From Naegleria gruberi (Eukaryota): a stretch of 64,000 nucleotides of DNA. Made by a program: the position numbers and the translations under genes. Positions 21,496-59,261 of the stretch are shown piece after piece. The first letter of the stretch is position 1. Each line of letters starts with the position of its first letter. The DNA lies in the NCBI GenBank assembly GCA_000004985.1, contig GG738863.1, one strand, 5' to 3'. The notes beneath the pieces are model-generated. The model was not told the origin of the DNA. It saw nothing but the letters and a program-made list of their open reading frames with translations, and made no database searches.

Positions 21496-23814
21496 TTAGT
21501 ATTTCTTTTTTGCGAATCTGAACTTTCTCTTTTCAGATTCTTGAACTAATTCCTCAAATGTCATAAGCTTCTCCTTCTTTGAAATTAGTTGAATAACATC
21601 CCCAGATTGGATATCCTTGTAGTGATCCAATGAAATACCACAATCAGAACCCTTCTTCACTTCTTTAACTTGGTCCTTAAAGTGGAACAATGAATTGATT
21701 GCAGTCTTTTCAAGACTAGTAGCACCATCTCTAATAACTCTGTAAAAATCTCCCTTTTCAACCTTTGCCAAAATTGAACCTTTGGTAACAGCACAACCAG
21801 CAATATTGATAAGACTCTTTTTTCCTGATGAAGATTTGTCTTGGAATGTGAATGGCTCTTTACAGATAGCTTCTCCAATAACTACATCCTCGTACACTGG
21901 TGGAATTAATTTTGTTAATTCCAATTTCAAATAATCAATCAAGTGATAAATAACCTTAAATTGAGCAATATTAATATTGTTAGATTTGGCATCAATTGAA
22001 ATATTTGGAGCAACTTTAGCATTCATAGCAATAATTTGAGTTCCTTCAACAACCTTTGCAAGTTGAATATCAGCTGTCGATACTGGACCAACAGTTTGTT
22101 TGATAATTTGAATTTGAGCAATTTCAGTTGGGAAGGATGAAATAATTTCAGAAAAAGCGTCAATAGTACCAACAACATCAGTCTTCAAAATAATTGGTAA
22201 AATATACTTCTTCTCCTCTTCAACTTTTTCTTCTTGAGCCTTTTCACCTTCAACTCCTTCAGTTAAACTTGCTCTCTTTTCCATTTCAATCATTTTTTCT
22301 TCAAACTTCTTTGCCTTCTTGTCTTCAGCCTCAATAGACATGCACTCGATTCTATATTCAACGATTCTCTTTGCTGTTTCTTCAGAATCAACCTCGATAA
22401 CTTTATCTCCAGCCTTTGGCATACTGTTAAAACCAACAATTTCCACTGGATCGGCTGGATTTGCAACCTTAACTTCCTTCAAATTCGGATCTCTCAAACT
22501 CTTAACTTTACCATAGGCAAGACCAGAAACTACCCATTTACCAACCTTCAGTGCACCTCTACGAACAATACAGGTTGCTGAAATACCAAATCCGTGCAAC
22601 ACCTTACATTCAATAACTGTACCTTGCATTGGAACATTGTCAACCATTGCCTTCAATTCCAACATTTCAGCTTGCAAACCAATTGCTTCAATAAGATCCT
22701 TGAGACCTTTTCCTTTGAGAGCAGAAATTGGAATAAATTGAGTATCTCCTCCCTTTTCTTCAGAAACAATTCCTTCATTCATCAAGTGTCTTTCGACCAT
22801 TTCCACATCAGCATTAGGTTTATCAATCTTGTTAATGGCAACAATCATTGGAACGTTGGCTTCTCTTGCATGTTTAATAACTTCCCTAGTTTGAGGCATT
22901 ACACCATCATCAGCAGCAACTACAAGTACAATGATATCTGTAACTTGAGCTCCACAAGATCTCATTGAAGTAAAAGCCTCATGGCCAGGTGTATCGATAA
23001 ATGTGATTGGTTTGGCAACTGATTCTAACTTGACTTGGAAGGCACCAATATGTTGTGTAATACCTCCGAATTCCTTATCAACAAGATTAGTATTTCTCAA
23101 TTTATCGAGAAGTGTTGTTTTACCATGATCGACGTGACCCATAATTGTGACAACAGGTGCCTTTGGTTTAAAAAGCTTGGCATATTCCTTCTCAGACTTT
23201 TTCATTTCACTTGCTGATGGTGGTGAATTATCTTCAAGTTTTGCCAATAATTTCAAATCTGATTCTGATAGAATTTTAGGTTTTGTTCGGATAGGTATTG
23301 ATTTTAAATGTTCCAAACACATATTTTCAATTGTATCAATAGATATCACATCTTCCATAGTATATCCTTTAGGTAAATGTTTAATAATTTCATGGGGAGA
23401 TATATCTAATTTTTGTGCCAACTCTCTTGCACTCATAGGAGCTTTTAACTCGAATTCAATATAGGTTTTTCTTGTACGGAAGAATACTTCTTCATCATCC
23501 TCGGATCCCTTTCTTTTTTTATATGATTTCTTCTTTTCTTCGTTATTTTGAATTGAACAAGTATGATAATTCATCACCCTTTGTTGCATTAATTTGCTTT
23601 TTAATAGTTCTTGTTGAATAAATAATTTTAAAGCCCTTTGGGACATTCCGTTACCCAAAACAACGTGATGATGACGATAATTATTCCCACCCAAACTAGT
23701 TGTATTGCTACTGTTGATCATTTGATGTTGTTGTTGTTGCTGATTGGTCAACAGCCAATTCCACGTAGAGCGAACAATTTGTTGTTTGTGTTGGCTTCTC
23801 ATTTTTTTATTCAA
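21496..23814 (-). CDS. Mitochondrial translation initiation factor IF-2 (bacterial-type IF2)
   Basis: 772-aa intronless ORF. GTPase domain VVTIMGHVDHGKTTLLDKLR...DTPGHEAF...NKIDK, followed by the IF2 beta-barrel and C-terminal domains. The N-terminal extension with Q/N tracts is consistent with an organellar presequence region. Confidence 0.85.
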   Translation of the reverse strand: MNKKMRSQHKQQIVRSTWNWLLTNQQQQQHQMINSSNTTSLGGNNYRHHHVVLGNGMSQRALKLFIQQELLKSKLMQQRVMNYHTCSIQNNEEKKKSYKKRKGSEDDEEVFFRTRKTYIEFELKAPMSARELAQKLDISPHEIIKHLPKGYTMEDVISIDTIENMCLEHLKSIPIRTKPKILSESDLKLLAKLEDNSPPSASEMKKSEKEYAKLFKPKAPVVTIMGHVDHGKTTLLDKLRNTNLVDKEFGGITQHIGAFQVKLESVAKPITFIDTPGHEAFTSMRSCGAQVTDIIVLVVAADDGVMPQTREVIKHAREANVPMIVAINKIDKPNADVEMVERHLMNEGIVSEEKGGDTQFIPISALKGKGLKDLIEAIGLQAEMLELKAMVDNVPMQGTVIECKVLHGFGISATCIVRRGALKVGKWVVSGLAYGKVKSLRDPNLKEVKVANPADPVEIVGFNSMPKAGDKVIEVDSEETAKRIVEYRIECMSIEAEDKKAKKFEEKMIEMEKRASLTEGVEGEKAQEEKVEEEKKYILPIILKTDVVGTIDAFSEIISSFPTEIAQIQIIKQTVGPVSTADIQLAKVVEGTQIIAMNAKVAPNISIDAKSNNINIAQFKVIYHLIDYLKLELTKLIPPVYEDVVIGEAICKEPFTFQDKSSSGKKSLINIAGCAVTKGSILAKVEKGDFYRVIRDGATSLEKTAINSLFHFKDQVKEVKKGSDCGISLDHYKDIQSGDVIQLISKKEKLMTFEELVQESEKRKFRFAKKKY

Positions 23815-27100: not shown

Positions 27101-27612
27101 TATATTTTTCTGTTTTGTTAACATGTCATCCTATAATGCTCTGTTACATTGTGTTAACTCTTTAGTAAGTTTCACAATTATTTTCACTTTACTTTAATAT
27201 TGAAAATAAGGAGTTGTTATCTAACCAAGGCTATAAAGGCCAATCCACCAAATTGGATGTTTATTCCTTTAGTATTGTAATGTGGGAACTTTTATTTGAA
27301 AAGTCTCCATTTTCTGATGAATTGGAACAAGTTGAAAATCCATTCTCAATGCTAATGAATATTATTAATGGACACAGACCTAAATTAATGTTTGGAACTT
27401 CATTCGAAAATGTAACAAATGATTGGATTGAACATAATTTCACCAAGAAACAAATTCAAAATGTTGGTAGTAGGGAAAAGATTATTCAATATTTAGCAAA
27501 GTATGTGAAAATAATGGAAATGTGCTGGGCTCAAGATGCCTCACAAAGACCAGAATTTATTGAAATTGTTGATTATTTGGAGAATTTAAATTCTTCCTTA
27601 TTCAACCATTGA
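24157..27612 (+). CDS. Receptor-like transmembrane protein kinase: signal peptide, parallel beta-helix (Pmp-like) ectodomain, one TM helix and a TKL-type kinase; at least four exons
   Basis: N-terminal signal peptide MYQHLPSYIFLLFFFLLLFVVSDS. Repeated ectodomain motifs GGSIYAT / GGAVYC / GGCIYSD. TM helix IIIPSVVLGFISLLIIIGSISYGSLILI. Kinase motifs GEGTFGSVY, AIKRL, HRDLKSANILL (split by the 26796..26843 intron after CATAG|GTAAGT), DFGLS, then a 6-bp microexon (27065..27070) and a last exon from ~27211 (ELLSNQGYKG...DVYSFSIVMWELL). The phase across the microexon does not close with canonical sites. Confidence 0.7.
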
Positions 27613-36353: not shown

Positions 36354-36663
36354 TCTACAGATTGTATGAAAACTAAATAAATAATGATATTTGTTACAAC
36401 TACAGTTTCGAATAAGGTTTTGACACTTAAACGAAACTACCCAAATACAAACTGCATCAAAAAATCTATTTTTATCTATGCTGACATCCATCGTTGAGAT
36501 TCTTGCTGAACCATAGTCCATACCTTTTTCTTAAAGTTCCTACTAAAAAAAATCCGCCAAATCAAACTCTAACTTTCTCAGGAAAATATAAACGAGAAAA
36601 AAACAAACCCTTTCAATTTTGCTCTCCAAATAACAACAATAACAACAACAAACTTTATACAAT

Positions 36664-37122
36664 ATGAGTTTTCTCTTCAGTAAAAAGACCCGAGTTCCTT
36701 CCATTGATATCGACCATGAAATGGATCAGGAGAATCACAAGAATTCCAAACAACAAAAACTTCAATCAACTACAACAACAACATTGAGTCGTGTTCGTTC
36801 CAAGTCTTCCGTTGATAAATTAGATAGTAGTAATAATAATAACAATAACAGCAACAATGAATCATCACAACAAGGAACATCTTCATCATGGAATGTTCTC
36901 GGAAGGGCTAGAGCCAATTCATCTAAACAAAATGCTGATCGTTTTCAAAAGGCTGAGGAAGATTTGGAAAGAGAACACTCTGGAGCAATGACTCACTTGA
37001 AGGAGAAGGGAAAGATTGGAGATTATGAAGATGAACATGAGGAGGAACAACAAGAAAAGGTTTCAAAGAGAAGGTTTAGTTTGAAGAAGAAGAAGAATGC
37101 TGAATTATTGACTGAACAATAA
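36664..37122 (+). CDS. Hypothetical low-complexity (poly-Asn/Ser, acidic) protein
   Basis: 152-aa ORF with biased composition and no recognisable domain. Weak support. Confidence 0.25.
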   Translation: MSFLFSKKTRVPSIDIDHEMDQENHKNSKQQKLQSTTTTTLSRVRSKSSVDKLDSSNNNNNNSNNESSQQGTSSSWNVLGRARANSSKQNADRFQKAEEDLEREHSGAMTHLKEKGKIGDYEDEHEEEQQEKVSKRRFSLKKKKNAELLTEQ

Positions 37123-37488
37123 GAAGGTTTTACTCGGTTTTAGTGTGTTGTGCAGAGGAAGAAACAATTCCTCTGTTGTATTTTAAAAATTGTATTAGAA
37201 ATTAGTGATATTATTATTACCCAATGTACATAAAAATTATTCCTTTTGAAATTTGTGCTTTCCTTGTGTTGTCTAGATATCAAAAGTGCCGAGCAGGTAT
37301 ATTTCTTATTAATTCCAATTTAAAGTTCAATCTATTCGAAACTAGTAAAATTTACAATTGTTAAGTAATAATAATTTAAAGAGTTAATAATTTATTTGGG
37401 AGATTATATTCAAAACCTAATTTGAATATTTCTTCTTCTGGTTGTTATTCGTTGTTTTTGTGTTAGAAAAATTTGATTGAAAACTAAT

Positions 37489-38978
37489 TTACAATTCTTC
37501 ACCTTCATCCAACATGGAATCTTCTTCAGCAACTCCTGAATCCTTTTCCAATTCTTCATAGTCCTTTTCCAAGGCAGCCAAATCTTCACGAGCTTCAGCA
37601 AATTCACCTTCTTCCATACCTTCACCAACAAAGTGATGAACATAGGCACGTTTAGCATATAACAAATCAAACTTGTCATTCATCTTGGAGAAGACTGAAG
37701 CAATGGCAGTAGAATTGGAAATCATTGAGCATGAATTGTCAACTTGAGCCATTTCAGAACCTGGCAACATGGTTGGAGCTTGATTATTGATACCAATCTT
37801 GAAAGCACATGGAGACCAATCAACAAATTGAATACTGGACTTGCTCTTCATAATCTTGACAGCATCACTGACATCCTTATTGACAACATCCTTACCACGA
37901 TACATTAAACAACATGAAATGTACTTGCCACTTCTTGGATCACATTTGGCCATCATGTTATTTGGTTCAAAGACCTTACTAGTCAATTCAGCAGCATTAT
38001 TAGTAGCATAGTATTGTTCAGCAACTGAAACCATTGGAGCCAATGAAGATAACATAAAGTGAATTCTTGGATATGGAACTAAATTAGTTTGGAATTCGTT
38101 CAAATCAACATTCAATGAACCTGGGAATCTCAATGAACAAGTCAATGATGAAACAGTTTGAGCAATGACACGATTCAAATTTCTGTAATCTGGTCTAGCA
38201 ATCTTCAAGTTTTGTTTACAGACATCATAGATAGCTTCATTGTCCAAAACAACTGAAATATCATTATGTTCCAATAAGGAATGAGTAGATAAGACTGAAT
38301 TGTATGGTTCAACAACTGAAGTAGTCAATTGAGGAGATGGATAAATATTGAAACCCAATTTGGTCTTTTTAGGGAATTCAACAGCTAATCTTTCCAAAAG
38401 CAAAGAAGCAAATCCAGAACCAGTACCACCACCAACAGAATTGAAAATTTGGAAACCTTGCAATGATTGACAATTATCAGTAATTCTTCTAATAGTATTC
38501 ATGGCACTATCCAAAATATCCTTTCCAATAGTGTAATGACCACGAGCAAAGTTATTGGAAGCATCTTCACTACCACGAATCATATAATTTGGATGATACA
38601 ATTGTTTGTATTCAGTATTCTTAATGGCATCAATGACAGATGGTTCCAAATCCAAGAACATGGCACGTGGAACATATTTACCAGAAGAAGCTTCGGAGAA
38701 ATAAACAGAAGCATCGTTACCTTGAACAGAATCAGTGGTACCATCAGGTTTGATTCCATGTTCAGCACAGAATAATTCCCAACAGCTGTTACCAACTTTG
38801 TTGAAGAAGATTTTCAAAAATTTAGATTAGAAAAATTTGATGATAAAAAGTGGAGATTGGAAAATGAATCATGTGAATAGATTAAAAATGTTAATATATT
38901 AGAGAATTGTGAAATTAGGTGTTGATAGTTACCTTGAATACCGGCTTGACCAATGTGGAGGGAGACGACTTCTCTCAT
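37489..38978 (-). CDS. Alpha-tubulin; two exons, minus 38978..38933 and 38795..37489, with a 137-bp intron in codon 16
   Basis: Exon 1 revcomp reads ATG AGA GAA GTC GTC TCC CTC CAC ATT GGT CAA GCC GGT ATT CAA G|GTAACT ([15 protein letters not shown]). Exon 2 ([15 protein letters not shown]...GGGTGSG...) continues in phase after ...CAACAAAG. The gene is alpha-tubulin-like throughout but moderately divergent at the N- and C-termini. Confidence 0.9.
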
Positions 38979-39492
38979 TTTGTGTGTGAATTTGTGTGTT
39001 TTTTTGTTAGGAGTTTAGACTAGTATCAACTATCTTGTAATGAGATGATTGACTTTTTTTTTTGTTGTTGAATTTTGAAAGGTGGCAGGTTGTGTGGGTT
39101 TTTATTAGACTTTTGGCAAGTGACTTTTAAATTTTTTTAACGTTCACAAGATTTTGGCGCTGGCGCAAAAAAAAACACGAATTTTTTGGTTGGGTCAAGG
39201 CGGCAAACATTACAAAAATTCTTGCGAAAGTTTCAGTGGAAAATTTGGTGCAAGTTACTACTTTAGCAATTTAACATTCAGCTGTTTAAACTATTATTCC
39301 TTCTTGCTAATTTTAACAAATATTGCAGTTTAGTTTGGTTGGTACCAAGTAGTTCAAGTCACATTGATTGTCATCACCAGCTCCTTCCTTTTTGTTTTCA
39401 GATAAGTAACAATGTAAAAAGGGAATTTAAAACCAAGTGGTTAAAAGGTAAATTGCAGTAAACAAAACTCAAAAAAACAATCAAGAATCAAA

Positions 39493-40451
39493 ATGGGTCT
39501 CTCAGCATCTACCTCTCTTGTCTCTTCACATAATAAGTTTTNNNNNNNNNNNNNNNNNNNNNNNNNNNNNNNNNNNNNNNNNNNNNNNNNNNNNNNNNNN
39601 NNNNNNNNNNNNNNNNNNNNNNNNNNNNNNNNNNNNNNNNNNNNNNNNNNNNNNNNNNNNNNNNNNNNNNNNNNNNNNNNNNNNNNNNNNNNNNNNNNNN
39701 NNNNNNNNNNNNNNNNNNNNNNNNNNNNNNNNNNNNNNNNNNNNNNNNNNNNNNNNNNNNNNNNNNNNNNNNNNNNNNNNNNNNNNNNNNNNNNNNNNNN
39801 NNNNNNNNNNNNNNNNNNNNNNNNNNNNNNNNNNNNNNNNNNNNCGATCAACAAGACACCTATGACAGCAATTTCTTTGGTGTTGATGGTGAAACCAATT
39901 GTAGATTGATGAATAAGAATAATTCAAAGGAACAATATGGTGCTGAAGGTGAATATCATTGGGTAACCATGCCATTCTCTGATGTCAAGTACAAGATGAC
40001 CATCGTCGCTGTCAAGAATCAAGCTCATCAACAAACACTTGATGGATGGGTTGCTCAAAAATTGAATCAAGGAATAGACACTGCCTTCCCAACAGTAGAA
40101 ACTAAACTCGGCTCATTTGCCTTCCCTAAATTCGAACTCTCTCAAGGAATGGAATTGAGCGACATTTTACAAAATGCTCCATTCAACATTAAGAAACCAT
40201 TTACAAATGAGGCCGATTTCTCTCACCTCCTCCAAAAGGAAAGTATCTTTATTGATAAAGTCATTCATAAGGCATCTATTAAGGTTGATGAAGCAGGTGC
40301 TGAGGCTAGTGCAGCAACTGCTATTGTGATGAGATGTTTGAGTTATGATCCAAATGAAATTAGATTTGTGGTCAATTCACCATTTGCATTTGTGTTGACT
40401 GATGATTCTAGTAAGACTGTTCTTTTTGTTGGTAAAGTCAACAAGTTGTAA
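39493..40451 (+). CDS. Serpin (serine protease inhibitor), interrupted by assembly gap 39542..39844
   Basis: The post-gap ORF has the serpin C-terminal half. Hinge/reactive-centre loop: IKVDEAGAEASAATAIVMRCLS. Signature FVVNSPFAFVLTD...TVLFVGKVNKL. The ATG at 39493 (MGLSASTSLV) is probably the start, before the gap. Confidence 0.7.
39542..39844. other. Assembly gap (303 N)
   Basis: Run of N inside the serpin gene. Confidence 1.
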
Positions 40452-40608
40452 ATACAAGAAACCATTTTTCCTCATTATTTTTACTCTATTGTTTGATGAG
40501 AGTATTTAATAAATTAATTTTGATCAGTTTATTGTCAATTGAATTGTTGGCTATTGGTTGATTGGTTCTTTACTGTTCTTAAACCATTACAATGGTCAAC
40601 TGAGTTGA

Positions 40609-40679
40609 TGCTTACTAGCTCAGCAGGGAGCGACTAACTTCAGATTAGTAGGTCGGCGGATCAAGTCCACCGTAGGTAT
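40609..40679 (+). tRNA. tRNA-like gene with anticodon UCA (candidate UGA-reading/suppressor or Sec-like tRNA, or a tRNA-derived pseudogene)
   Basis: Hand-folded cloverleaf: acceptor TGCTTAC/GTAGGTA (two G-U pairs), U8-A9, D-stem GCTC/GAGC with a short 6-nt loop, anticodon stem ACTAA/TTAGT, loop CTTCAGA (U33, anticodon TCA, G37), 5-nt variable loop, T-arm GGCGG-ATCAAGT-CCACC (one C-A mismatch; A54). A T-run follows 8 nt downstream. Confidence 0.35.
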
Positions 40680-40686
40680 CGTCAAA

Positions 40687-40690
40687 TTTT
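40687..40690 (+). terminator. Oligo-T run consistent with an RNA polymerase III terminator for the tRNA-like gene
   Basis: TTTT begins 8 nt after the predicted tRNA 3' end. Confidence 0.3.
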
Positions 40691-40749
40691 GATTGCTCGA
40701 AATCAAATAGAAAATCACACACAACAAGAGAGATCAGCAGATTAAAAAA

Positions 40750-42044
40750 ATGTCATTACAAGAGAGGGAAGATCAGCATGCTATTGCTTCATTAGAGAAT
40801 AATTTACTGGATAAACTTCCTGATGAATTGTTACTTTATATTCTGGGCTACTCGACAAGTGATCCGATCACAATTGTGCAACTCTCGCATGTAAATAAGA
40901 GAATGGAGAGGATTTTGAATTACTCTCCGATTGTTGTTTCTCAAATGATCGAATATCATCATTCTGCTAATCATCAATGGATTAGAGAAGGATACACGAT
41001 TGGAAAATTCTGGGAAAATCCTATTCGGAATGGAATTTCGGTTTTAAAACAATTTTTCAAATTGCTATACTAGCTACTAGTGGACGAAAGAGGAAGAATG
41101 AAAAATCCAATGGGCATGATGATGATGAATTAATTGTGGACAAGTATCAAAATGTGAGGAAATATGTGGATTCTAAACAAAAGATTGTTGATTGTTTAAA
41201 ATATTCAAGATGGAATCCAATTAAGAAACTTAGAAAGATTGAGGACTTGACAACTGTCTTTGAACGAAGGCATATGAATAAGGTGTTATTTATGATTGGT
41301 ACTATGTTTTCAATGACAGCACAATTCATTGTGGGAAAGATTGGGAGCACACCAAATGACCAATGGTCTTTGGAGAAGGGTTTATGGTGGCTTCCATATG
41401 CATTCTGGCCTTTTGAAGGAGCTGTAGTGGGAATTATATTAGCATCAATGACAATTTCCATCTTTTATTCATGTAAATGTATCAGTTCATTAATTGTTAA
41501 ACCTGACAAGAAACTACGGTCGCAGGATATCAGTGTTGTTTACATGGCACCTATTTCATCAATATTTTACACCACTACTTGGAGACCTATGTTGATTTTA
41601 ATGAGATCTCTCCTTTATGAAACTGTTGGGGTTGAACTCTCCCTGCTGGAATCCATAGTAAGCAAATTATTTTATTATTCTCATTATCCTGGCCTTGCAT
41701 TCTTGGGGATTTCCTGCTTTTCTTCCTCTGTTAACTCAATTACAGACAAATTAGCTGATCCTACTTTGGGGTCTTTTATTTCCCTTTCTCTGTTCAAGTA
41801 TAGTGGAAATTTATTGAGCTTTATCCCACTTTCTCTCAGTTTATGCTTTGCGTCAATTAAGGAGATTATATCAGATATCAAATCACCAGACAAGGTGGAC
41901 CAATTTATACCTATGGCTCTATCTATTAGTACAGCTTTGGTTAGTGTTGGTCACTTCTCATATCTCACTCTTGCTCCTATTTCTTTAATGTTTGTTGGTT
42001 TAATGATTGATTCGTTCAGACCAAACAGATATCGTAACCTTTAG
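40750..42044 (+). CDS. F-box-like N-terminal domain plus polytopic membrane domain (two ORFs, 40750..41073 and 41136..42044, in different frames; probably one gene)
   Basis: ORF 1 has LLDKLPDELLLYILGY (F-box-like). ORF 2 has at least six hydrophobic helices. The second frame stays open upstream through the first ORF's stop, so a 1-nt indel or a non-canonical junction near 41040-41075 is likely. Confidence 0.4.
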
Positions 42045-42080
42045 ATTTTTGAAAACCACAAAATGCTACCAAGAATGGAT

Positions 42081-44793
42081 TTATTCAAAACTGGACAAAT
42101 CCAAGTTCAGTTTTATCTGATGATTAGAATTTGTGAGTTTCAACTTTTCCAAAATAAAGTCCTTTCTCTTTGTACAGTCAATCATCCTTTGAATGATTTT
42201 TCCAAAAGCGTTGAATACTTTAGTGAACCTCTTTCCAATCAAATTAGCAGAATAAAGATCTAGAGAAAGCATTTCATGAAAGTAGATAAACTCTTGCACA
42301 TCGATTGGAATAGCTTTGAAAAAATCATTCTCAATCTCTTCAACTGCTTCCAAATGGGATCTCCACGACTTGGACAACCCAGTCAAGAGGAATGCAGGGA
42401 TATGAGGAAATAAGGGGCTTTTAGCTAAATTTGACAGATTAGCTGCTGACTGTTTTAAAGATCTTCCTCTAAATCCCAACTCTCTAAATATCAATAATCT
42501 GTAGGATGAGACACTGATTGAAATGAGTAAATTTCCTAGTAATCTTCCCCTTTCTGGAATATTCTTCTTTGAATGATAGGCATTATACTCCTGTTCAATG
42601 GCATTCACAAAATGTAAATAGTCGGGTACATTTTCTTGTGAAATTGGCTTTTTCAAAATATTATTCAAACTATCAGGAATTACACTCTGACTAGAACTGT
42701 ATCTATATCCTTCTATCAGTTTTCTTTGCATAAAGTTTGGAATATATTGTTCCTCATTATCAACATCCCCCAATGTTAGAAGAACGAGTTGATAACCTCT
42801 CTTAAGACACATTGTAGATTCATCAAGTTGAGTTTGCTGTGAGAGAAACTTTCCAGTCGTTTCCACCAATGAAGCAGCTTCATCATTCATATAGGATGCA
42901 GCTGCAAATGATCCTAGATAACAACATATGGCAGCAATCAAATAACTTGGAGGAGATGAATAGTTATAGTCCATACACAAGAGCTCTTTTCCTCTGTAAA
43001 ATGCCCTTACAGAATTGGTATTATTTCCTGCCCTCTGGAAGCAAAACGATTGAATGGAGTAGAGTAAACTTGTGTACTGATACATGGTTCCGTACGCTTC
43101 CTTATTTACAATAATCTTGTTGAAGACATCTCTTGTTATGATTGGCACGCCAGCACTGACCATTCCAAAAAAGAGTTCAATAGTTTGTTGTTGAAGAATA
43201 ACTGGCAGGAGAAGAGTATTTCTTTCAAATGTGGAATAAACGGCATCATCTATTACTTGTGGAATGGTACTGATTGAATCTCGTACATCATTGTTTGATC
43301 CATTATTTGGAGAATTGTAAGAGGCATTTTGAGGTTGTTGGTGACTGATAAAATCAGTCTGTTGTCTCTGAATTAACATTTGACTAATAATTGGCATTAT
43401 TATTCCTGCATTTCCATTTTGAACAATTAATCCAAGAAGAGTTTCAATTGTTTGTTGATCACAATTAGTAGTGAGTACACTTCTAATGGTATTGACAAGA
43501 CTCTCAACATCTAATTGTTGAATATTCTGCATTCCGCTCATTATTGAACTATTATCATTGAAATATTGTTGTCGGTATGGTGGTTGTTGATGATAAATAT
43601 TTTGTTGTTGCTGTTGATTAGTATTTACAAGCTCTGCTCCATTGTTGATTGGAGTGGGAATAAATGAAAACGGAGGAGCATTTGCAAATAATGAAGAATT
43701 AACTTCATTATTCGAAATGGGTTGAGTAGTGGAGGTATGTACAGATGGAGGAGGTTCAGGAGTTATTTCATTATTTGTAGTCGAAGAAGATTTCTTAGAT
43801 TTTCCCACCTTTCTCTTTTTCACAGATGTTAATTGGAAATTTTCATAAGAACCACTTCTTTTTCCATTTGATTCTTGAATTGGTGGTTGTTGAATGGAAA
43901 ATTGTTGAGATTCATTAACTGTGTGACTAGTGTCAAATTGTGAAAGGGTAATATTATATCCAGAATTCTTCTTTTTAAAACTGTCAATTCCCATTATTGT
44001 CATGGTGACACTCTTCCTCTTTGGATGTTTGTTTTTACTTCCAACAGTTCTTCCACGTTTTTTTGGTTCTGGATATTGACACACCTTTCCCCTTGCTTTA
44101 CATTCCAAACAAATAGGTAATTGTCTCCCACACTATTTTCATCAATTTAAATATCCTCCAATCAGAACTGAATTAACTTACCTTTTTGTGTCCTCTTCTG
44201 CACGCTGTACATGAGATTGGGAATAAATTTGCCTCTTCTGAAATACTATTTTCCTCCACGGCTTCCTCTTCTTCTTCATGATTGACCATCTTTTTATGAG
44301 GAGAAGCTCCACATGATTCCACAGACAAAGAACTCGTAGAACTATTATCCAAATTATTGTCATTTTCATTTCCGAAATGAAACATGTTTCTTCCATGTAC
44401 GCCAATGTCCTCTCCTTTTTCCAGTAATTCCTCTCGAAGAGAAATATCCAACAAATCATTGCCATATACTGATGAATTTTTAGATAGTTGCCTTGTTTGA
44501 TTATTCCTACATGAACTACTTTGATTGGATTGTGTTTTTTGCTTTATCATCTCATCCCGAGAAGAAATATTCACGGATGATGTATCATCCAAAAATACTT
44601 GTTGCATGCTTGAATGCTGAAAGTCACTCACAACTCGTTCATCCTTCTCTGCTCTTTCATGTTGATCTCCATCACCAACACATGATGTCTCCCCACACTC
44701 CTGGTGACTGTTATTTGGAGGTTGCATTGGCGGCATTTTTGTTTGCTTTGGTTTTGTGAGAAGCAACGTTCTCCAATTCATGTGTGCAAGCAT
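42081..44793 (-). CDS. Zn(II)2Cys6 binuclear-cluster transcription factor with fungal-specific transcription-factor (middle homology) domain; two exons, minus 44793..44182 and 44132..42081
   Basis: The 49-bp intron (AAAAAG|GTAAGT...AAAATAG|TGT) splits the zinc cluster in phase 0. The spliced product reads SCTACRRGHKK|CGRQLPICLECKARGKVCQY, a canonical CX2CX6CX6CX2CX6C cluster followed by a basic linker. The downstream ...LLYSIQSFCFQRAGN...LIAAICCYLGSFAA region resembles the Fungal_trans domain. Confidence 0.7.
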
Positions 44794-45451: not shown

Positions 45452-46809
45452 TTGAATTATCATCTAAAAAAAATGCTCTCCTTCTTCTCTAGGGCTCGAT
45501 CTCTCTCATCCTCAACAGAAAATAATGAAGAATCAACAACGTCTAATACAAAATCAAGTAAAATAATCATTGAGGAGATTGATTCTGAAACTGAAATAAC
45601 AACCACACCAACAACCCCACAACCTACAACAGAAACAGAAACAAGAGAAGATCCATCCCAAACTTCTCCCTCAAGCGCCGAAAAAAGGTACCACACTCCA
45701 AGAATAACTGTAGATGTTATCAGGGACTTGTGCTCTCGCCAAAGTTTGTTCCAAACACCCTATTTGAATGATAAACTCTTCCTTCATCACCGAGGCTTCA
45801 GAGTCATTGAAAATTTAGAATTATACACTGAACTGAAAGCTTTATGGCTTGAGGGTAATGCCATCACTAAAATTGAAAACCTTGGCCACTTGGATAAGCT
45901 CAGATGTTTGTATCTCAACCAGAATCTCATCACTACAATTGAAAATTTGGAAAATTTAGTGAATTTGCAAACATTGAACCTCTCCAGTAACAGAATTACT
46001 GTTGTAGAAAATTTGGAATGTTGCCCTCAATTGGAGACTTTNNNNNNNNNNNNNNNNNNNNNNNNNNNNNNNNNNNNNNNNNNNNNNNNNNNNNNNNNNN
46101 NNNNNNNNNNNNNNNNNNNNNNNNNNNNNNNNNNNNNNNNNNNNNNNNNNNNNNNNNNNNNNNNNNNNNNNNNNNNNNNNNNNNNNNNNNNNNNNNNNNN
46201 NNNNNNNNNNNNNNNNNNNNNNNNNNNNNNNNNNNNNNNNNNNNNNNNNNNNNNNNNNNNNNNNNNNNNNNNNNNNNNNNNNNNNNNNNNNNNNNNNNNN
46301 NNNNNNNNNNNNNNNNNNNNNNNNNNNNNNNNNNNNNNNNNNNNNNNNNNNNNNNNNNNNNNNNNNNNNNNNNNNNNNNNNNNNNNNNNNNNNNNNNNNN
46401 NNNNNNNNNNNNNNNNNNNNNNNNNNNNNNNNNNNNNNNNNNNNNNNNNNNNNNNNNNNNNNNNNNNNNNNNNNNNNNNNNNNNNNNNNNNNNNNNNNNN
46501 NNNNNNNNNNNNNNNNNNNNNNNNNNNNNNNNNNNNNNNNNNNNNNNNNNNNNNNNNNNNNNNNNNNNNNNNNNNNNNNNNNNNNNNNNNNNNNNNNNNN
46601 NNNNNNNNNNNNNNNNNNNNNNNNNGGCAACTCTCACATTCGAACATGCTGGTGAAGAAAAATCAATGATTGTCGATGTAAACCTATACAATTCCGAAGT
46701 TTGCAGAAAGGAATATGCCAGACTGTATCAAAATAATCAAGACAAACCATCAAAAACCCAACTCTACTCTCCTCACATCGTTTCACTGTGGCTTAGAGAA
46801 TTGAAATAA
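45452..46809 (+). CDS. LRR protein resembling dynein axonemal assembly factor 1 (DNAAF1/LRRC50/ODA7), interrupted by assembly gap 46042..46625
   Basis: LCSRQSLFQTPYLNDKLFLHHRGFRVIENLELYTELKALWLEGNAITKIENL...CLYLNQNLITTIENLENLVNLQTLNLSSNRITVVENLECCPQLE follows the DNAAF1 N-terminal LRR block almost position by position. The post-gap segment (46626..46809) may be the C-terminus of the same gene. Confidence 0.55.
46042..46625. other. Assembly gap (584 N)
   Basis: Run of N inside the DNAAF1-like gene. Confidence 1.
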
Positions 46810-49617: not shown

Positions 49618-50544
49618 TTATTTTCTTCTTTTGCTCTTCTTCGCCAATTGAGTGGAACTTCCACTCAATTTGTAAAGCAAGAAGGAATCGTGTTTATCTT
49701 TGAAACAATATCTATGCATTGGACCACATACGCTACAACCAGTAGAGGCACTATTCCTCACCTTCTCAAGTTTATGACAAACAACACAATGAGCAACTCT
49801 ACCAGAATAGCCCAGTTCACGAACCGTAATTAATTTGTGTGCTGAGGCAAGTTTGATTGGTGACAACTGTAAACAAAGTTGATCCACAAAATCATTCTTT
49901 GTAATGGATGATTTTTTAGCCAATTTGAAGGCGACGAATGCATTATGAATCATCATACTAAAATACCAATACAATAAACCAATTCTCCAACGATACTTTC
50001 GGTAAGGGAATTTAGTTTGGAGGCGGAATTATTAACTTGGTCAATATGACCTGCTTCACTGAAATATCTATTAACAAGAGTGGGAACAACTTTACCTTGA
50101 AGAGTGAAATCCGTTGTTTCCAAATTATCCATTTTCTCTTGACGAATGACAAGGTTTCCATTTTCGAAATCTATTGGAATAGTTGTCAAAAAATTCAAAA
50201 TCTTACCCTCATTATTCTTAATACAAAATACACCAAATNNNNNNNNNNNNNNNNNNNNNNNNNNNNNNNNNNNNNNNNNNNNNNNNNNNNNNNNNNNNNN
50301 NNNNNNNNNNNNNNNNNNNNNNNNNNNNNNNNNNNNNNNNNNNNNNNNNNNNNNNNNNNNNNNNNNNNNNNNNNNNNNNNNNNNNNNNNNNNNNNNNNNN
50401 NNNNNNNNNNNNNNNNNNNNNNNNNNNNNNNNNNNNNNTTTCGACAATCAGGAAATTGAACTTCCCAAAGAATGTAAAAAGAGAATAGTCACTTGGGAAA
50501 ATCAAGCTAGACAAATCATACGTGAAGCCAAAAAATATGAGCAA
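49618..50544 (-). mobile_element. piggyBac-like transposase remnant (C-terminal DDE region plus Cys-rich domain), spanning assembly gap 50239..50438
   Basis: ORF 49618..49974 (minus) ends with a piggyBac-type CRD: HCVVCHK...TGCSVCGPMHRYCFKDKHD, i.e. C-x2-C...C-x2-C...C-F-x-x-H. The adjacent upstream ORF has ...RYFSEAGHIDQVN, comparable to the transposase NKYMGGVDxxDQ region. The element is truncated at only ~300 aa, and TIR/TTAA ends were not identified. Confidence 0.45.
50239..50438. other. Assembly gap (200 N)
   Basis: Run of N inside the piggyBac-like remnant. Confidence 1.
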
Positions 50545-53972: not shown

Positions 53973-56900
53973 ATGCGAAGAATTCCAAGAACACCTTCTT
54001 CATCATCGAATAATAATCAACACAATTTACCAGTGATTGTTATTGATGATTCCACTGATGAGGATACAAGTATTTTACTTCCAGAAACTCCACCAAGAAG
54101 AGTTGTCGAACAACAGCAACGACAACGGGAAAATCTACCTATTGCTGTCTCTGATGATGAAACAACTCTGAATCCCTTCTCTCCAGGAGGTTCACCTTTA
54201 TATGCACCTTCTTCACCACAACTTCCTCTCAATTCTTTGGATTGGTCAGATTCAGAAGACTCCTCCGAATATGAATCATCATCTGATGAAGATGAAACAC
54301 CAAACCACAATAATATTGATGACTTTCTTGATAGATTAACAAGAGAAGAAGAAAGAGAAAGAGTCACCACTCACCAAACTCACCCACCAGTTGTACAATA
54401 CCCTTCAGTAGTGAATAGTAATAATAATTATAATAATTATAATTATTTACAATCACGACTGATCAATAATACTAACAGTAATAATAATATCAACTTGACT
54501 CTTCCCTTCGTGAATAACAATAATAATAGTAGTAATAATAGTAGTAACAGTAGTAGTAGTAATAATAATTCTAACAGAAATCTATTGCATCAACATAGAT
54601 TGCAGTCAACATCAGCAATAGCAGCAAGAATTCCAATTCAAGCATCCCGTAGATTTATAACTCCAACTACTTCTTCTACAAACAGAAATACACCTTTCGC
54701 ATCAGCATCTAATCATGCAAATCATCACCATCATCAACATCTTTTCACTAATAGAAATAATATCATAGGAATTCAAAGAAACAATGACCACCATGATACA
54801 CCATTTGAAAGAATGGTTGAAGAACATATTTTAGCCCAAGTTATTGCACGAACCCAACGTCACCAAGTGGGAGGAGCTATCCANNNNNNNNNNNNNNNNN
54901 NNNNNNNNNNNNNNNNNNNNNNNNNNNNNNNNNNNNNNNNNNNNNNNNNNNNNNNNNNNNNNNNNNNNNNNNNNNNNNNNNNNNNNNNNNNNNNNNNNNN
55001 NNNNNNNNNNNNNNNNNNNNNNNNNNNNNNNNNNNNNNNNNNNNNNNNNNNNNNNNNNNNNNNNNNNNNNNNNNNNNNNNNNNNNNNNNNNNNNNNNNNN
55101 NNNNNNNNNNNNNNNNNNNNNNNNNNNNNNNNNNNNNNNNNNNNNNNNNNNNNNNNNNNNNNNNNNNNNNNNNNNNNNNNNNNNNNNNNNNNNNNNNNNN
55201 NNNNNNNNNNNNNNNNNNNNNNNNNNNNNNNNNNNNNNNNNNNNNNNNNNNNNNNNNNNNNNNNNNNNNNNNNNNNNNNNNNNNNNNNNNNNNNNNNNNN
55301 NNNNNNNNNNNNNNNNNNNNNNNNNNNNNNNNNNNNNNNNNNNNNNNNNNNNNNNNNNNNNNNNNNNNNNNNNNNNNNNNNNNNNNNNNNNNNNNNNNNN
55401 NNNNNNNNNNNNNNNNNNNNNNNNNNNNNNNNNNNNNNNNNNNNNNNNNNNNNNNNNNNNNNNNNNNNNNNNNNNNNNNNNNNNNNNNNNNNNNNNNNNN
55501 NNNNNNNNNNNNNNNNNNNNNNNNNNNNNNNNNNNNNNNNNNNNNNNNNNNNNNNNNNNNNNNNNNNNNNNNNNNNNNNNNNNNNNNNNNNNNNNNNNNN
55601 NNNNNNNNNNNNNNNNNNNNNNNNNNNNNNNNNNNNNNNNNNNNNNNNNNNNNNNNNNNNNNNNNNNNNNNNNNNNNNNNNNNNNNNNNNNNNNNNNNNN
55701 NNNNNNNNNNNNNNNNNNNNNNNNNNNNNNNNNNNNNNNNNNNNNNNNNNNNNNNNNNNNNNNNNNNNNNNNNNNNNNNNNNNNNNNNNNNNNNNNNNNN
55801 NNNNNNNNNNNNNNNNNNNNNNNNNNNNNNNNNNNNNNNNNNNNNNNNNNNNNNNNNNNNNNNNNNNNNNNNNNNNNNNNNNNNNNNNNNNNNNNNNNNN
55901 NNNNNNNNNNNNNNNNNNNNNNNNNNNNNNNNNNNNNNNNNNNNNNNNNNNNNNNNNNNNNNNNNNNNNNNNNNNNNNNNNNNNNNNNNNNNNNNNNNNN
56001 NNNNNNNNNNNNNNNNNNNNNNNNNNNNNNNNNNNNNNNNNNNNNNNNNNNNNNNNNNNNNNNNNNNNNNNNNNNNNNNNNNNNNNNNNNNNNNNNNNNN
56101 NNNNNNNNNNNNNNNNNNNNNNNNNNNNNNNNNNNNNNNNNNNNNNNNNNNNNNNNNNNNNNNNNNNNNNNNNNNNNNNNNNNNNNNNNNNNNNNNNNNN
56201 NNNNNNNNNNNNNNNNNNNNNNNNNNNNNNNNNNNNNNNNNNNNNNNNNNNNNNNNNNNNNNNNNNNNNNNNNNNNNNNNNNNNNNNNNNNNNNNNNNNN
56301 NNNNNNNNNNNNNNNNNNNNNNNNNNNNNNNNNNNNNNNNNNNNNNNNNNNNNNNNNNNNNNNNNNNNNNNNNNNNNNNNNNNNNNNNNNNNNNNNNNNN
56401 NNNNNNNNNNNNNNNNNNNNNNNNNNNNNNNNNNNNNNNNNNNNNNNNNNNNNNNNNNNNNNNNNNNNNNNNNNNNNNNNNNNNNNNNNNNNNNNNNNNN
56501 NNNNNNNNNNNNNNNNNNNNNNNNNNNNNNNNNNNNNNNNNNNNNNNNNNNNNNNNNNNNNNNNNNNNNNNNNNNNNNNNNNNNNNNNNNNNNNNNNNNN
56601 NNNNNNNNNNNNNNNNNNNNNNNNNNNNNNNNNNNNNNNNNNNNNNNNNNNNNNNNNNNNNNNNNNNNNNNNNNNNNNNNNNNNNNNNNNNNNNNNNNNN
56701 NNNNNNNNNNNNNNNNNNNNNNNNNNNNNNNNNNNNNNNNNNNNNNNNNNNNNNNNNNNNNNNNNNNNNNNNNNNNNNNNNNNNNNNNNNNNNNNNNNNN
56801 NNNNNNNNNNNNNNNNNNNNNNNNNNNNNNNNNNNNNNNNNNNNNNNNNNNNNNNNNNNNNNNNNNNNNNNNNNNNNNNNNNNNNNNNNNNNNNNNNNNN

Positions 56901-59261
56901 NNNNNNNNNNNNNNNNNNNNNNNNNNNNNNNNNNNNNNNNNNNNNNNNTTGGAACTATTCTCACTGGATGAATTTTTAAAATTGTTGTCTAATGTGACTT
57001 CACCTTCAATTATTACAAGAATGGAGGTGAATGATTCTGCAAGTGGAGAACAGTCAATCGTCTATCAGACAACTGAGGAAAATTTTCAATTATTGACAAC
57101 ACATCTGCTAATGACTTGGGAGAGTTTACCTTCATCAATAGTAATTGTTATTTTCAGACTGTTATTTATGGTCTTTCTAATATCTTTACTTCCGCTTTGT
57201 ATTATTTACAGAAAGAGAGAACCCATCAGAAGAAAGTTACCAGTATCATTTTCTATTCTAATATTGGGTCTCTGTACTAACTCGAGATCTTTAATAGAGT
57301 CTATTCCTGTTCGAAAGATAATATTCTTACAGTACTGGAATCAATATTTGGAGGCGAAAACGAAGATGAATCCTTTCGAGTTTTTCGAAAAGTATTCTCA
57401 AAATGGTATCCCAGATTGGATGTTTAATATTACATATTATGAGAATATCATGTGTTACTCAGTTACTTTTGGTATTGTAATAATTTACATATTTTCAATC
57501 GTACTTTACTTTACTCACATGACCAAATTCATGTTGGACAGAATCATTACTAAGAAAAAAATGACCCTTAAGGATTCATTAGACAGAATCAAAGAAAAAG
57601 GAGCGAAAACAGTCATGTCGAATCAACCGCAACCAACCACTACCGTTCAATCAACCAATGACATTACACTGGTTCCTAAAAGTGTTGAAATTGAATTAGT
57701 GGAAAATGATCCTGCTATTTCCGTAACACTTAATACTATTGAGAATTCCACAATAGGAGACAAGAGATATCCCACATTAACAGTTGAAAACTCAATAGAA
57801 ATTGACAAAAATCTAGTAGCTCCAGAATCAACCGGTCAACTCACTACCATGACTAATGATACTTCCTTGACTACATCTCAACAACAAGGGGGTGGTTCAA
57901 CTAATATTCACATATCTTTCAGTGATGATACAGAGGATGACTTAACTTCAAGTGCTATAACAGATGCTGATGAAATATTTCTTACTGATGTAGACACTTT
58001 TGGGACAGAAGACAAGGAAAATGGATTAGCAACGGAAGGATATGAAAACTTTACAGAGAATACTAAAGCACTGAAAGTAATGCAATTTATAGAAGAGAAG
58101 AAGGTTATTCAAATAGTATTTTCTGTTGGATTGTTTCTAATTTGGTTTATCATTGCTGCTCTATTATTATTGTTTTGGAAGCAGGCGGGCCAATTTGTTT
58201 CTCTTTTTCCTGTTTTTGAGACGATCCAGGGAGTGTGTACTTCTGAGAAAAGATCAACCATTGGGACATTTTGTCTCTTGTTTGGACTTTTATTCCCAAT
58301 TGTATTCGTTTTTGTGTATTCTTTGGATATTTATCAATCAATATCTGAATATAGAATACAAAAGGACACAATTAAGAGGAATAGCCGGCAAGAAAATATG
58401 CCAAACTTTTTCATATACTACTTTATTGACACCGACTTGTTTCTCTACAGGTTAGAATGCTCATTGTTATTTTTATTTGGTGCTTTGTCTGTTTGCTTAT
58501 ATGTCATATTTTGGGATCCATCAGGAGATGACAAGATCAAAGGTTTGATATCACATCTGATATCCCTTTTTGGTATTGAATTTTTTATGATTGTAATTAT
58601 GCCTGGAATTTCAATTTTTGCAACAATTTACAGAACTTGGAAAGAAAAGAAATTGTTAAACAAACAAGATGAAAATTTAGATCAAATGACTGTATTGAAT
58701 TTGAAAAGGTTTGCACCTGGTATTGAATGTATAGATTTTATTCTAACACATCCAATAGAGAGACAGTTGTTTTACAAGTATTTGACTTCTGAGTTTTCTC
58801 AAGAAAATCTTCTCTTCATGGAGGATATTATGAGATTTCAAAGAATACCTCCCCAAAAACTTAGATATAAGATTATGAAATTGAGAGAAATAATAACACT
58901 CTATCTCATTCAGAATAGTTCTGTATTCGAGGTCAATATTTCTAAAAAATTGATTGACTCTGAAATACAGTCCTACATTCTTATTGAGCACATTCTTCAC
59001 CATCACTCAATTAAAATGATCAATCTTCCAAAATTTATCAAGGAAACACCCAAGATTAACTCATTCCCTGAACCGCTTCAACAGAACGACACAGACAGAG
59101 AATTACTACTCAATGCATTCAAGGAAATCAATCATCCAGATTTCATGAAAGGAATTATTACAGAAGCTTACTCTAATTTACTGGATTCTTATCTCAGATT
59201 CATAAGTAGTAGAGTGTGGCTAATACATTTGGAGAAAGTGAAACAATTTGGAATATTGTAA
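53973..59261 (+). CDS. Seven-TM protein with C-terminal RGS (regulator of G-protein signalling) domain; the N-terminal region is separated from it by the 2-kb assembly gap 54884..56948
   Basis: After the gap there are about seven hydrophobic helices, then an RGS box: FILTHPIERQLFYKYLTSEFSQENLLFMEDIMRFQ...LREIITLYL. Before the gap there is a Ser/Asn/His-rich low-complexity N-terminus, which may or may not be the same gene. Confidence 0.5.
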   Translation: MRRIPRTPSSSSNNNQHNLPVIVIDDSTDEDTSILLPETPPRRVVEQQQRQRENLPIAVSDDETTLNPFSPGGSPLYAPSSPQLPLNSLDWSDSEDSSEYESSSDEDETPNHNNIDDFLDRLTREEERERVTTHQTHPPVVQYPSVVNSNNNYNNYNYLQSRLINNTNSNNNINLTLPFVNNNNNSSNNSSNSSSSNNNSNRNLLHQHRLQSTSAIAARIPIQASRRFITPTTSSTNRNTPFASASNHANHHHHQHLFTNRNNIIGIQRNNDHHDTPFERMVEEHILAQVIARTQRHQVGGAIXXXXXXXXXXXXXXXXXXXXXXXXXXXXXXXXXXXXXXXXXXXXXXXXXXXXXXXXXXXXXXXXXXXXXXXXXXXXXXXXXXXXXXXXXXXXXXXXXXXXXXXXXXXXXXXXXXXXXXXXXXXXXXXXXXXXXXXXXXXXXXXXXXXXXXXXXXXXXXXXXXXXXXXXXXXXXXXXXXXXXXXXXXXXXXXXXXXXXXXXXXXXXXXXXXXXXXXXXXXXXXXXXXXXXXXXXXXXXXXXXXXXXXXXXXXXXXXXXXXXXXXXXXXXXXXXXXXXXXXXXXXXXXXXXXXXXXXXXXXXXXXXXXXXXXXXXXXXXXXXXXXXXXXXXXXXXXXXXXXXXXXXXXXXXXXXXXXXXXXXXXXXXXXXXXXXXXXXXXXXXXXXXXXXXXXXXXXXXXXXXXXXXXXXXXXXXXXXXXXXXXXXXXXXXXXXXXXXXXXXXXXXXXXXXXXXXXXXXXXXXXXXXXXXXXXXXXXXXXXXXXXXXXXXXXXXXXXXXXXXXXXXXXXXXXXXXXXXXXXXXXXXXXXXXXXXXXXXXXXXXXXXXXXXXXXXXXXXXXXXXXXXXXXXXXXXXXXXXXXXXXXXXXXXXXXXXXXXXXXXXXXXXXXXXXXXXXXXXXXXXXXXXXXXXXXXXXXXXXXXXXXXXXXXXXXXXXXXXXXXXXXXXXXXXXXXXXXXXXXXXXXXXXXXXLELFSLDEFLKLLSNVTSPSIITRMEVNDSASGEQSIVYQTTEENFQLLTTHLLMTWESLPSSIVIVIFRLLFMVFLISLLPLCIIYRKREPIRRKLPVSFSILILGLCTNSRSLIESIPVRKIIFLQYWNQYLEAKTKMNPFEFFEKYSQNGIPDWMFNITYYENIMCYSVTFGIVIIYIFSIVLYFTHMTKFMLDRIITKKKMTLKDSLDRIKEKGAKTVMSNQPQPTTTVQSTNDITLVPKSVEIELVENDPAISVTLNTIENSTIGDKRYPTLTVENSIEIDKNLVAPESTGQLTTMTNDTSLTTSQQQGGGSTNIHISFSDDTEDDLTSSAITDADEIFLTDVDTFGTEDKENGLATEGYENFTENTKALKVMQFIEEKKVIQIVFSVGLFLIWFIIAALLLLFWKQAGQFVSLFPVFETIQGVCTSEKRSTIGTFCLLFGLLFPIVFVFVYSLDIYQSISEYRIQKDTIKRNSRQENMPNFFIYYFIDTDLFLYRLECSLLFLFGALSVCLYVIFWDPSGDDKIKGLISHLISLFGIEFFMIVIMPGISIFATIYRTWKEKKLLNKQDENLDQMTVLNLKRFAPGIECIDFILTHPIERQLFYKYLTSEFSQENLLFMEDIMRFQRIPPQKLRYKIMKLREIITLYLIQNSSVFEVNISKKLIDSEIQSYILIEHILHHHSIKMINLPKFIKETPKINSFPEPLQQNDTDRELLLNAFKEINHPDFMKGIITEAYSNLLDSYLRFISSRVWLIHLEKVKQFGIL
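54884..56948. other. Assembly gap (2065 N)
   Basis: Run of N upstream of the 7TM-RGS coding region. Confidence 1.

Follow-up and report, generated by a model that had tools for sequence, protein, structure and literature searches.

What does a tRNA-shaped gene with the anticodon UCA, fully cognate to UGA, do in a nuclear genome that uses UGA as a stop codon? We analysed a 64,000-nt stretch of Naegleria gruberi DNA from contig GG738863.1 (assembly GCA_000004985.1), called the window throughout, in which such a gene lies on the plus strand at positions 40609–40679. The window is nuclear DNA of a heterolobosean amoeboflagellate, with ~33% GC, densely spaced genes, short introns and five assembly gaps; its open reading frame at 17775–20459 is 100% identical to an NCBI protein named heat shock protein 101 of N. 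gruberi, followed by matches in Naegleria lovaniensis (73%) and Willaertia magna (65%). On balance, and with modest confidence, we read the UCA gene as an orphan, probably disabled copy of a normal tRNA gene that carries a stop-codon anticodon.

The segment 40609–40679 is a real but flawed tRNA-shaped gene of 71 nt, of ordinary class I size, Pol III-type and nuclear. ARAGORN, run on the complete 64-kb window, reports a single tRNA, at 40609–40680 (+), with the anticodon tca and a score of 105.5. The Rfam tRNA model RF00005 matches the gene over its full length (1–71 of 71) with 42.1 bits and an E-value of 7.2e-08 in a local scan of 301 nt; the match exceeds the gathering score of 29, and the E-value rescaled to the whole window is ~1e-5, well outside chance. 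When the whole window was scanned at the gathering threshold with default filters, the UCA tRNA went unreported and passed with laxer filters only, which indicates weak sequence-level conformity. The cloverleaf has stems of 7, 4, 5 and 5 bp, in which 20 of the 21 pairs form, two of them as G·U, with a folding energy of −18.5 kcal/mol. The preliminary description of this locus had proposed a 71-nt cloverleaf with four stems, U8, U33, a 5-nt variable loop and an oligo-T run, and all of these are present according to ARAGORN, Rfam and the fold; the ARAGORN and Infernal/Rfam checks that it suggested both recover the gene, the latter above the model threshold. A scan for bacterial promoters and terminators is uninformative for a Pol III gene.

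Read from the 5′ end of the plus strand, the acceptor stem begins with UGCUUAC (40609–40615), which pairs with GUAGGUA (40672–40678) through U-A, G·U, C-G, U·G, U-A, A-U and C-G. The stem is thus unusually rich in AU and GU pairs; for comparison, that of a canonical tRNA-Lys(UUU) encoded on L001, a 1.6-kb ENA metagenome contig from a relative, consists of five G-C and two G·U pairs. The next segment, 40616–40632, comprises U8 and A9, the D arm (stem GCUC/GAGC, loop AGCAGG) and G26, and includes the A-box region. The D loop of 6 nt is 1–2 nt short and is without position 20/A21, as seen from the Infernal alignment, in which the loop has a deletion and departs from consensus, and from the ARAGORN drawing; the shortening possibly arose through a 2-nt slippage in the GGGAGAGC run. 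The anticodon arm (40633–40649) has a 5-bp stem, ACUAA/UUAGU, that is unusually AT-rich, with A-U pairs at four of five positions, and the loop CUUCAGA, that is C32, U33, U34, C35, A36, G37 and A38. The anticodon TCA, as previously proposed, occupies 40640–40642. It is followed by a class I variable loop of 5 nt, AGGUC (40650–40654).

The T arm with the B box (40655–40671; GGCGG, AUCAAGU, CCACC, from the Infernal alignment and pair list) carries two irregularities: A54 at 40660 replaces T54, and a C51·A63 mismatch at 40657/40669, marked in the non-canonical line of the Infernal output, interrupts the T stem. The mismatch had escaped the preliminary description. In the register with a 7-bp acceptor stem the discriminator is U73 (40679), and a TTTT run 8 nt past it (40687–40690) is a candidate Pol III terminator. 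Its trailer, TCAAATTTTG, recurs after the L001 tRNA-Lys. In a fold of 40607–40682, the leader GA (40607–40608) is able to pair with UC of the trailer (40679–40680), giving a 9-bp acceptor helix followed by G. Nearly all tertiary positions are canonical (U8-A14, G15-C48, G18G19, G26-A44, C13-G22-G46, U33, U55-C56, A58 and G53-C61), the B box matches the loose consensus GWTCRANNC, and both the A box and the B box come close to consensus. The preliminary description had pointed out A54 and the 6-nt D loop as atypical, and they truly are when set against the conserved nucleotides of the elbow. G37 beside A36 had also been counted as atypical and is no defect, since G37 after A36 is normal in eukaryotic cytosolic tRNAs, where m1G37 or wybutosine occurs in Cys, Phe and Leu tRNAs and in mammalian Trp and Tyr tRNAs.

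We determined the use of UGA in the genes that surround the tRNA. Stop-to-stop reading frames of at least 200 codons that are real genes contain no internal TGA in the window; in particular, there is no in-frame TGA in HSP101/104 (17775–20459) or IF2 (21496–23814), the two long genes (the former as HSP104) for which this had been asserted. Stop-to-stop frames of at least 200 codons end in TAA (27), TAG (4) or TGA (7). The seven TGA ends are mostly artefacts of assembly gaps or lie in an intron, and two confirmed genes of the window end in TGA, both of them as anticipated: (i) the PUF gene stops with TGA at 10251–10253 and (ii) the last exon of a receptor-type kinase gene (27169–27612) reaches position 258 of the 258 positions of the Pfam kinase model and then stops with TGA. 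If read through, the PUF protein would gain the in-frame C-terminal extension SVKEITNLFSFQNI and the kinase the extension VVLPFITLHQLD. A further TGA end at 16900–16902 was discarded as a stop, as it falls within an intron (GTAAGT...ACAG) of an acetyl-CoA hydrolase/transferase gene, and low-GC regions near 46 kb and 55–57 kb that appeared as open reading frames in six frames turned out to be assembly gaps. UGA is therefore a stop and not a sense codon in the nuclear genome. The real long reading frames of the window lack the in-frame UGA that marks codes in which UGA is read as Trp, Cys or Gly, and, UGA being no nuclear sense codon, the UCA gene does not serve a variant code as its cognate tRNA.

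The anticodon UCA is also that of selenocysteine tRNA, and N. gruberi uses selenocysteine and has the machinery for it (literature including PMC8450103). Eukaryotic tRNA-Sec is recognized by a 9/4 fold, its special secondary structure, the UCA anticodon and G73 (PMC8450103), G73 being essential (PMC5330540) and the 9/4 fold required (PMC8450103, PMC5330540). The Naegleria gene shares with eukaryotic tRNA[Ser]Sec the anticodon at 40640–40642 and a host with selenocysteine machinery. Unlike it, the gene folds with 7 + 5 bp in both ARAGORN and Infernal, has a D stem of 4 bp with a 6-nt loop instead of a 6-bp stem with a 4-nt loop, a variable loop of 5 nt instead of a long arm, and U instead of G73 at 40679 in the register picked by both programs, and it measures 71 nt as against ~87–90 nt. 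The pairing of leader and trailer, with its 9-bp helix and the G that follows, would speak for an unusually compact selenocysteine tRNA, but it leads to a 9/5 fold; it fails to rescue the Sec fold because the T stem stays at 5 bp and the long arm is absent. SerRS needs a long variable arm. ARAGORN attaches the label 'SeC' to the gene, which reflects the anticodon only, and in the Rfam clan competition the general tRNA model wins. Spurious 'Sec' (TCA) tRNAs are routinely reported in eukaryotes by ARAGORN and tRNAscan-SE, including in selenoprotein-less fungi and plants, and ARAGORN averages ~20 'Sec' calls per selenoprotein-containing genome (PMC5330540). Moreover, the study of the N. gruberi machinery by da Silva et al. 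2013 is already among the sources from which tRNAscan-SE 2.0 drew its curated canonical eukaryotic tRNA-Sec sequences (PMC8450103). The probability that the gene encodes a compact tRNA-Sec, an option raised in the preliminary description, is in our judgement next to nil, and with no 9/4 fold, long variable arm, 6-bp D stem or G73 we reject it.

Comparison with the canonical tRNA-Lys(UUU) of L001 shows how far the UCA gene falls below the standard of an ordinary elongator tRNA. The Rfam tRNA model gives 42.1 bits for the UCA gene and 68.7 bits for the tRNA-Lys, a gap of 27 bits, and ARAGORN scores them at 105.5 and 124.5. When the ARAGORN threshold is raised by 10%, the UCA gene is lost, whereas the tRNA-Lys persists even at +20%. 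The elbow of a canonical elongator has a D loop of at least 7 nt with G18, G19 and A21, T54 and a fully paired T stem; the UCA gene departs from this by three lesions, the 6-nt D loop, A54 and C51·A63, which cluster in the elbow formed by the D loop and T arm, that is in the region of the A/B-box promoter. A canonical elongator also has a sense anticodon for a codon used as an amino acid, and UCA pairs with the UGA stop. The GC content is 51% for the UCA gene, 62% for the tRNA-Lys and 27–31% for the intergenic flanks. The AU/GU-rich stems and the intermediate GC content are consistent with decay toward AT; since the gene is still 20 percentage points above its flanks, any such decay would be young or constrained. 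Of the marks of a tRNA pseudogene, a low score, lesions at invariant positions and missing orthologous conservation are found here.

Among the alternatives that the preliminary description had left standing side by side, a pseudogene-like copy is thus the best supported, through the low score, the three lesions and the absence of a tRNA from the corresponding interval of N. fowleri, while the Sec-type tRNA drops out. The following course of events would account for a disabled copy. A copy of a normal tRNA gene would have changed its anticodon to UCA and become defective in the D loop, T loop and T stem. It may still be transcribed, while the short D loop, A54 and C51·A63 would weaken folding of the elbow, binding of TFIIIC or both, and little or no charged UCA tRNA would get to the ribosome; on this account a stop-codon anticodon is tolerated for just that reason. 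As UGA never occurs in frame and is a real stop, a strong suppressor would be costly. A well-expressed UGA reader would lengthen every TGA-terminated protein, so that a surviving copy is expected to bear lesions in its promoter boxes and elbow. We count the low scores, the clustered lesions and the drift in composition in favour of a disabled copy, together with the lack of a syntenic tRNA in N. fowleri and of relatives in the pattern scans described below. Against it we count the 20 of 21 stem pairs, the canonical tertiary positions, the B box and the T4 terminator, as well as the GC content 20 points above the flanks and the presence of a tRNA gene at the same locus in a relative.

A single change in the anticodon of tRNA-Cys(GCA), tRNA-Trp(CCA) or tRNA-Arg(UCG) would yield UCA, which makes these three the likely parents of the gene. 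U73, the C-U-N-C-A-G-A loop and the variable loop AGGUC look most Cys-like, which we presume to be a lead to its origin. The same three tRNAs are the near-cognate readers of UGA in cells with the standard code, and misreading of UGA in yeast has been apportioned as 86% Trp, 7% Cys and 7% Arg (figures cited in PMC4967479). They resemble the Naegleria gene in reading UGA; unlike it, they have sense anticodons and do so by mispairing only, whereas the Naegleria anticodon is fully cognate. The gene also resembles the false 'SeC' or 'possible suppressor' TCA predictions in standard-code eukaryotes in its ordinary size, its sub-par score and an ARAGORN label based on the anticodon; a low-scoring tRNA(UCA) prediction in Condylostoma has been discounted (PMC4967479). 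It differs from such false predictions in that it keeps a near-complete cloverleaf, the A/B boxes and a terminator, and in that it is single in 64 kb of a compact protist genome, not one of many in a SINE-rich animal genome.

These retained features raise the possibility, which we regard as unlikely but credible, that the gene is a natural opal-suppressor elongator tRNA in working order, one that would be transcribed by Pol III, charged, and used to read through UGA at a low level or to insert cysteine there. The intact cloverleaf, the canonical tertiary nucleotides, the near-consensus A and B boxes with a terminator in place and the gene's standing as a GC island relative to its flanks would all be expected of a functional tRNA. 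TGA is moreover a minority stop (7 ends against 27 in TAA, with two confirmed genes in the window), and a tRNA gene is kept at the position upstream of the F-box gene in the relative represented by L001. U73 is the main identity element for CysRS. Judged from these nucleotides, the synthetase of a working suppressor would most plausibly be CysRS (U73, C35, A36 and G37), or else TrpRS. The low score and the three lesions at conserved positions argue against function, as do the lack of an ortholog in the N. fowleri synteny block or in any scan and the absence of in-frame TGA from the genes of the window.

A nuclear tRNA-Cys(UCA) that reads UGA as cysteine has been reported in Euplotes and provides a precedent for a working suppressor, while ciliates in which UGA encodes Trp have no nuclear tRNA-Trp(UCA) (bioRxiv 10.1101/2023.10.09.561518; for the latter also PMC4967479); that even eukaryotes with UGA as a Trp codon do without such a gene counts against a working suppressor. 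The Euplotes tRNA, like the Naegleria gene, is nuclear, of the class I elongator type and bears the anticodon UCA, and the Cys-like marks of the latter recall it. Euplotes genes use UGA as a sense codon throughout, unlike those of Naegleria, in which it is absent in frame and terminates real genes. On a stronger version of the working-suppressor reading, N. gruberi would express an elongator tRNA devoted to UGA and fully cognate to it, probably cysteine-accepting, and UGA would consequently have three meanings, as stop, as selenocysteine and as low-level cysteine or read-through; from the sequence as it stands we consider this distinctly unlikely.

The genomic neighbourhood bears on both readings. 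Upstream of the UCA gene lies the C-terminal part of a serpin gene (39906–40451, +; Pfam Serpin, 1e-34), the 5′ part of which is missing through the assembly gap 39542–39844. Downstream, starting 70 nt after the tRNA, lies an F-box-like gene (40750–42044, +; Pfam F-box-like) with two ORF blocks at 40750–41073 and 41136–42044. The second block has one homolog only, the protein P0121 with 38% identity, encoded on L001, where the canonical tRNA-Lys(UUU) is located on the same strand ~50 nt upstream of the orthologous F-box gene, which likewise has two blocks. The tRNA genes are sparse in this DNA: the 64-kb window has one, and six other heterolobosean loci totalling 98 kb, among them four (L004–L007, 73 kb) sampled for tRNAs, have none. 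A tRNA at the same spot in two genomes is therefore unlikely by chance. Its presence upstream of the orthologous gene in a relative suggests that the locus itself is old. Descent of the UCA gene from the tRNA-Lys(UUU) of L001 was considered and rejected: the two are ~58% identical (hand count), with matches mainly at positions common to many tRNAs. Four of the five pairs of the anticodon stem are changed on both sides, and such double compensatory changes indicate that the two are different tRNAs, neither a simple mutated descendant of the other.

Two explanations fit the recurrence of a tRNA at this site: either the position upstream of the F-box gene habitually holds a replaceable tRNA gene, or the tRNA gene serves as a DNA element for its neighbour. 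As a DNA element, a TFIIIC/Pol III site would be kept directly in front of the F-box gene to act as a boundary or close to the promoter, and its anticodon and isotype could drift freely. The same-strand position 50–70 nt upstream of orthologous genes in N. gruberi and L001, even though the neighbouring proteins are only 38% identical, would agree with this, as would the difference in isotype (UCA against Lys-UUU) beside the shared trailer and the low chance of co-location among sparse tRNA genes. We nevertheless regard retention as a DNA element as improbable, given that the comparison comprises two genomes, that the double compensatory stem differences show the tRNAs not to be simple descendants of each other, and that N. 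fowleri lacks the whole gene pair.

Synteny with N. fowleri was followed through the divergent alpha-tubulin gene at 37489–38978, the N. fowleri ortholog of which is 89% identical and lies in the block L002. This block also contains orthologs of the small ORF at 36643–37119 and of the Zn-cluster factor at 42081–44108 (45% identical), and the tubulin gene is inverted between the two species. The interval between tubulin and Zn-cluster genes is occupied by a PAS-guanylate cyclase and an EcKL-type kinase in N. fowleri and by serpin, tRNA and F-box genes in N. gruberi. L002 yields no tRNA with ARAGORN or in an Rfam E-value scan, and L003, an ENA contig reached via the tubulin ortholog, has none either. 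The absence from N. fowleri is weak evidence, since the serpin and F-box genes are missing as well and the species are distant. A degenerate pattern of the D arm, the CTTCAGA loop and the AGGTC variable loop has no match in JGI metagenomes, GTDB genomes or IMG/VR, and a pattern of the T arm and 3′ acceptor strand has none in JGI metagenomes; these negatives weigh little, as heterolobosean DNA is scarce in the JGI, GTDB and IMG/VR collections, yet no result favours conservation. In the literature we located nothing relevant on a described Naegleria suppressor tRNA or a census of its tRNA genes.

We examined repeats around the gene as well. Within 64 kb, a search at up to three mismatches gave neither a further complete copy of the UCA tRNA nor a further half copy, and no direct or inverted repeats flank it in the window. 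Genes shaped like tRNAs with odd anticodons are often SINE heads in general, which is the one argument for a tRNA-derived SINE head or a member of a dispersed repeat family at this locus, as nothing specific to it was found. The single copy within 64 kb and without flanking repeats speaks against a SINE, as does the exact tRNA size of a gene whose terminator follows after 8 nt, with no body unrelated to tRNA, and we hold a repeat origin to be very improbable.

UGA encodes tryptophan in many protist mitochondria, and some tRNAs are imported by Naegleria mitochondria. Both facts would allow the UCA gene to be a nuclear-encoded tRNA-Trp(UCA) destined for import into mitochondria that read UGA as tryptophan. 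U73 and the U1-A72 pair are not Trp-like. In addition, N. gruberi is the exception among excavates in retaining mtRF2a, which co-evolves with UGA as a mitochondrial stop (PMC3472500). We therefore rejected mitochondrial import as highly improbable.

Predictions of tRNAs with suppressor anticodons commonly arise as by-products when tRNA finders are run on eukaryotic genomes, and, as it stands, the UCA gene is one more such case. If it is a dead or crippled copy, its value lies mainly in annotation: entering it as the Naegleria tRNA-Sec would be wrong, and it is no sign of a variant code. If it proved to be expressed and charged, it would represent a rare natural, fully cognate opal suppressor in an organism where UGA still means stop and selenocysteine, and would bear on (i) the onset of stop-codon reassignment via an ambiguous intermediate and (ii) the interchange of cysteine and selenocysteine. 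Should N. gruberi have a dedicated UGA-decoding tRNA, one possible role would be as a fallback for selenoprotein mRNAs that does not depend on selenium. That a tRNA gene recurs just upstream of the F-box gene in two distant heteroloboseans raises a minor question of its own, about the part that tRNA genes play as DNA elements in the compact genomes of protists.

An Rfam scan of the whole window (1-64000) at the gathering threshold returned zero families. When the scan was confined to 301 nt, the tRNA with the UCA anticodon (40609-40679, + strand) scored 42.1 bits and passed the cut-off of 29 bits. The tRNA is atypical and is missing from the whole-window scan because the default speed filters discard it, and the negative result obtained there is therefore no proof of absence. 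The sequences flanking the tRNA on either side can pair with each other (40600-40690), the leader bases GA with the trailer bases UC and perhaps additional bases as well, and in the predicted precursor fold this pairing lengthens the acceptor helix to 9–10 bp. This complementarity may represent leader–trailer pairing in the pre-tRNA, or else may have arisen by chance.

The window contains five runs of N, which are assembly gaps (39542-39844, 46042-46625, 50239-50438, 54884-56948 and 61724-61852). These runs account both for apparent stretches of 15–26% GC and for the six-frame stacks of 'ORFs' around 46 kb and 55–57 kb. One gap, some 760 bp 5′ of the tRNA, has swallowed the start of the serpin gene, leaving only its C-terminal part at 39906-40451 (+ strand). 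Elsewhere in the window, the acetyl-CoA hydrolase/transferase gene carries a short GTAAGT...ACAG intron (16884-16934) with two TGA triplets inside. The TGA at 16900-16902 was ruled out as a stop codon; because it is intronic, the apparent end of the ORF at this position is not a stop, and the coding sequence restarts in a different frame after the intron and stops near 17300.

We compared 36643-44132 of the window with the syntenic block of N. fowleri (VFQX01000030.1; L002:7377-20595). Both blocks share their end genes, a small ORF, a divergent alpha-tubulin and a Zn-cluster factor, with the orientation of the tubulin gene inverted between the two species. The interior genes are the serpin, the tRNA and the F-box gene in N. 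gruberi, and a PAS-guanylate cyclase and an EcKL kinase in N. fowleri. The alpha-tubulin gene (37489-38978, − strand) has an intron past the first ~15 codons, and its product is 89% identical to the N. fowleri protein, 74% to Naegleria tubulin alpha-6 and only about 60% to typical alpha-tubulins; it may be one of Naegleria's divergent (mitotic-type) tubulins. The fungal-type Zn2Cys6-like transcription factor (42081-44793, − strand) contains many Q/N tracts (motif CKARGKVCQYPEPKKRGR). A Pfam search of its ORFs in the window gave zero matches, and its N. fowleri ortholog gave a weak match to Zn_clus.

A metagenomic relative (ENA contig L001) carries a canonical tRNA-Lys(UUU) of 68.7 bits at 134-206, immediately 5′ of the ortholog of the F-box gene (40750-42044 in the window, + strand), matching the window tRNA in position and strand. 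Both tRNAs have the trailer TCAAATTTTG. tRNA genes are otherwise sparse: six further heterolobosean loci, 98 kb in all, contained none. Judged by sequence comparison of L001 with the window, the position of the tRNA upstream of the F-box gene is conserved, whereas its identity is not.
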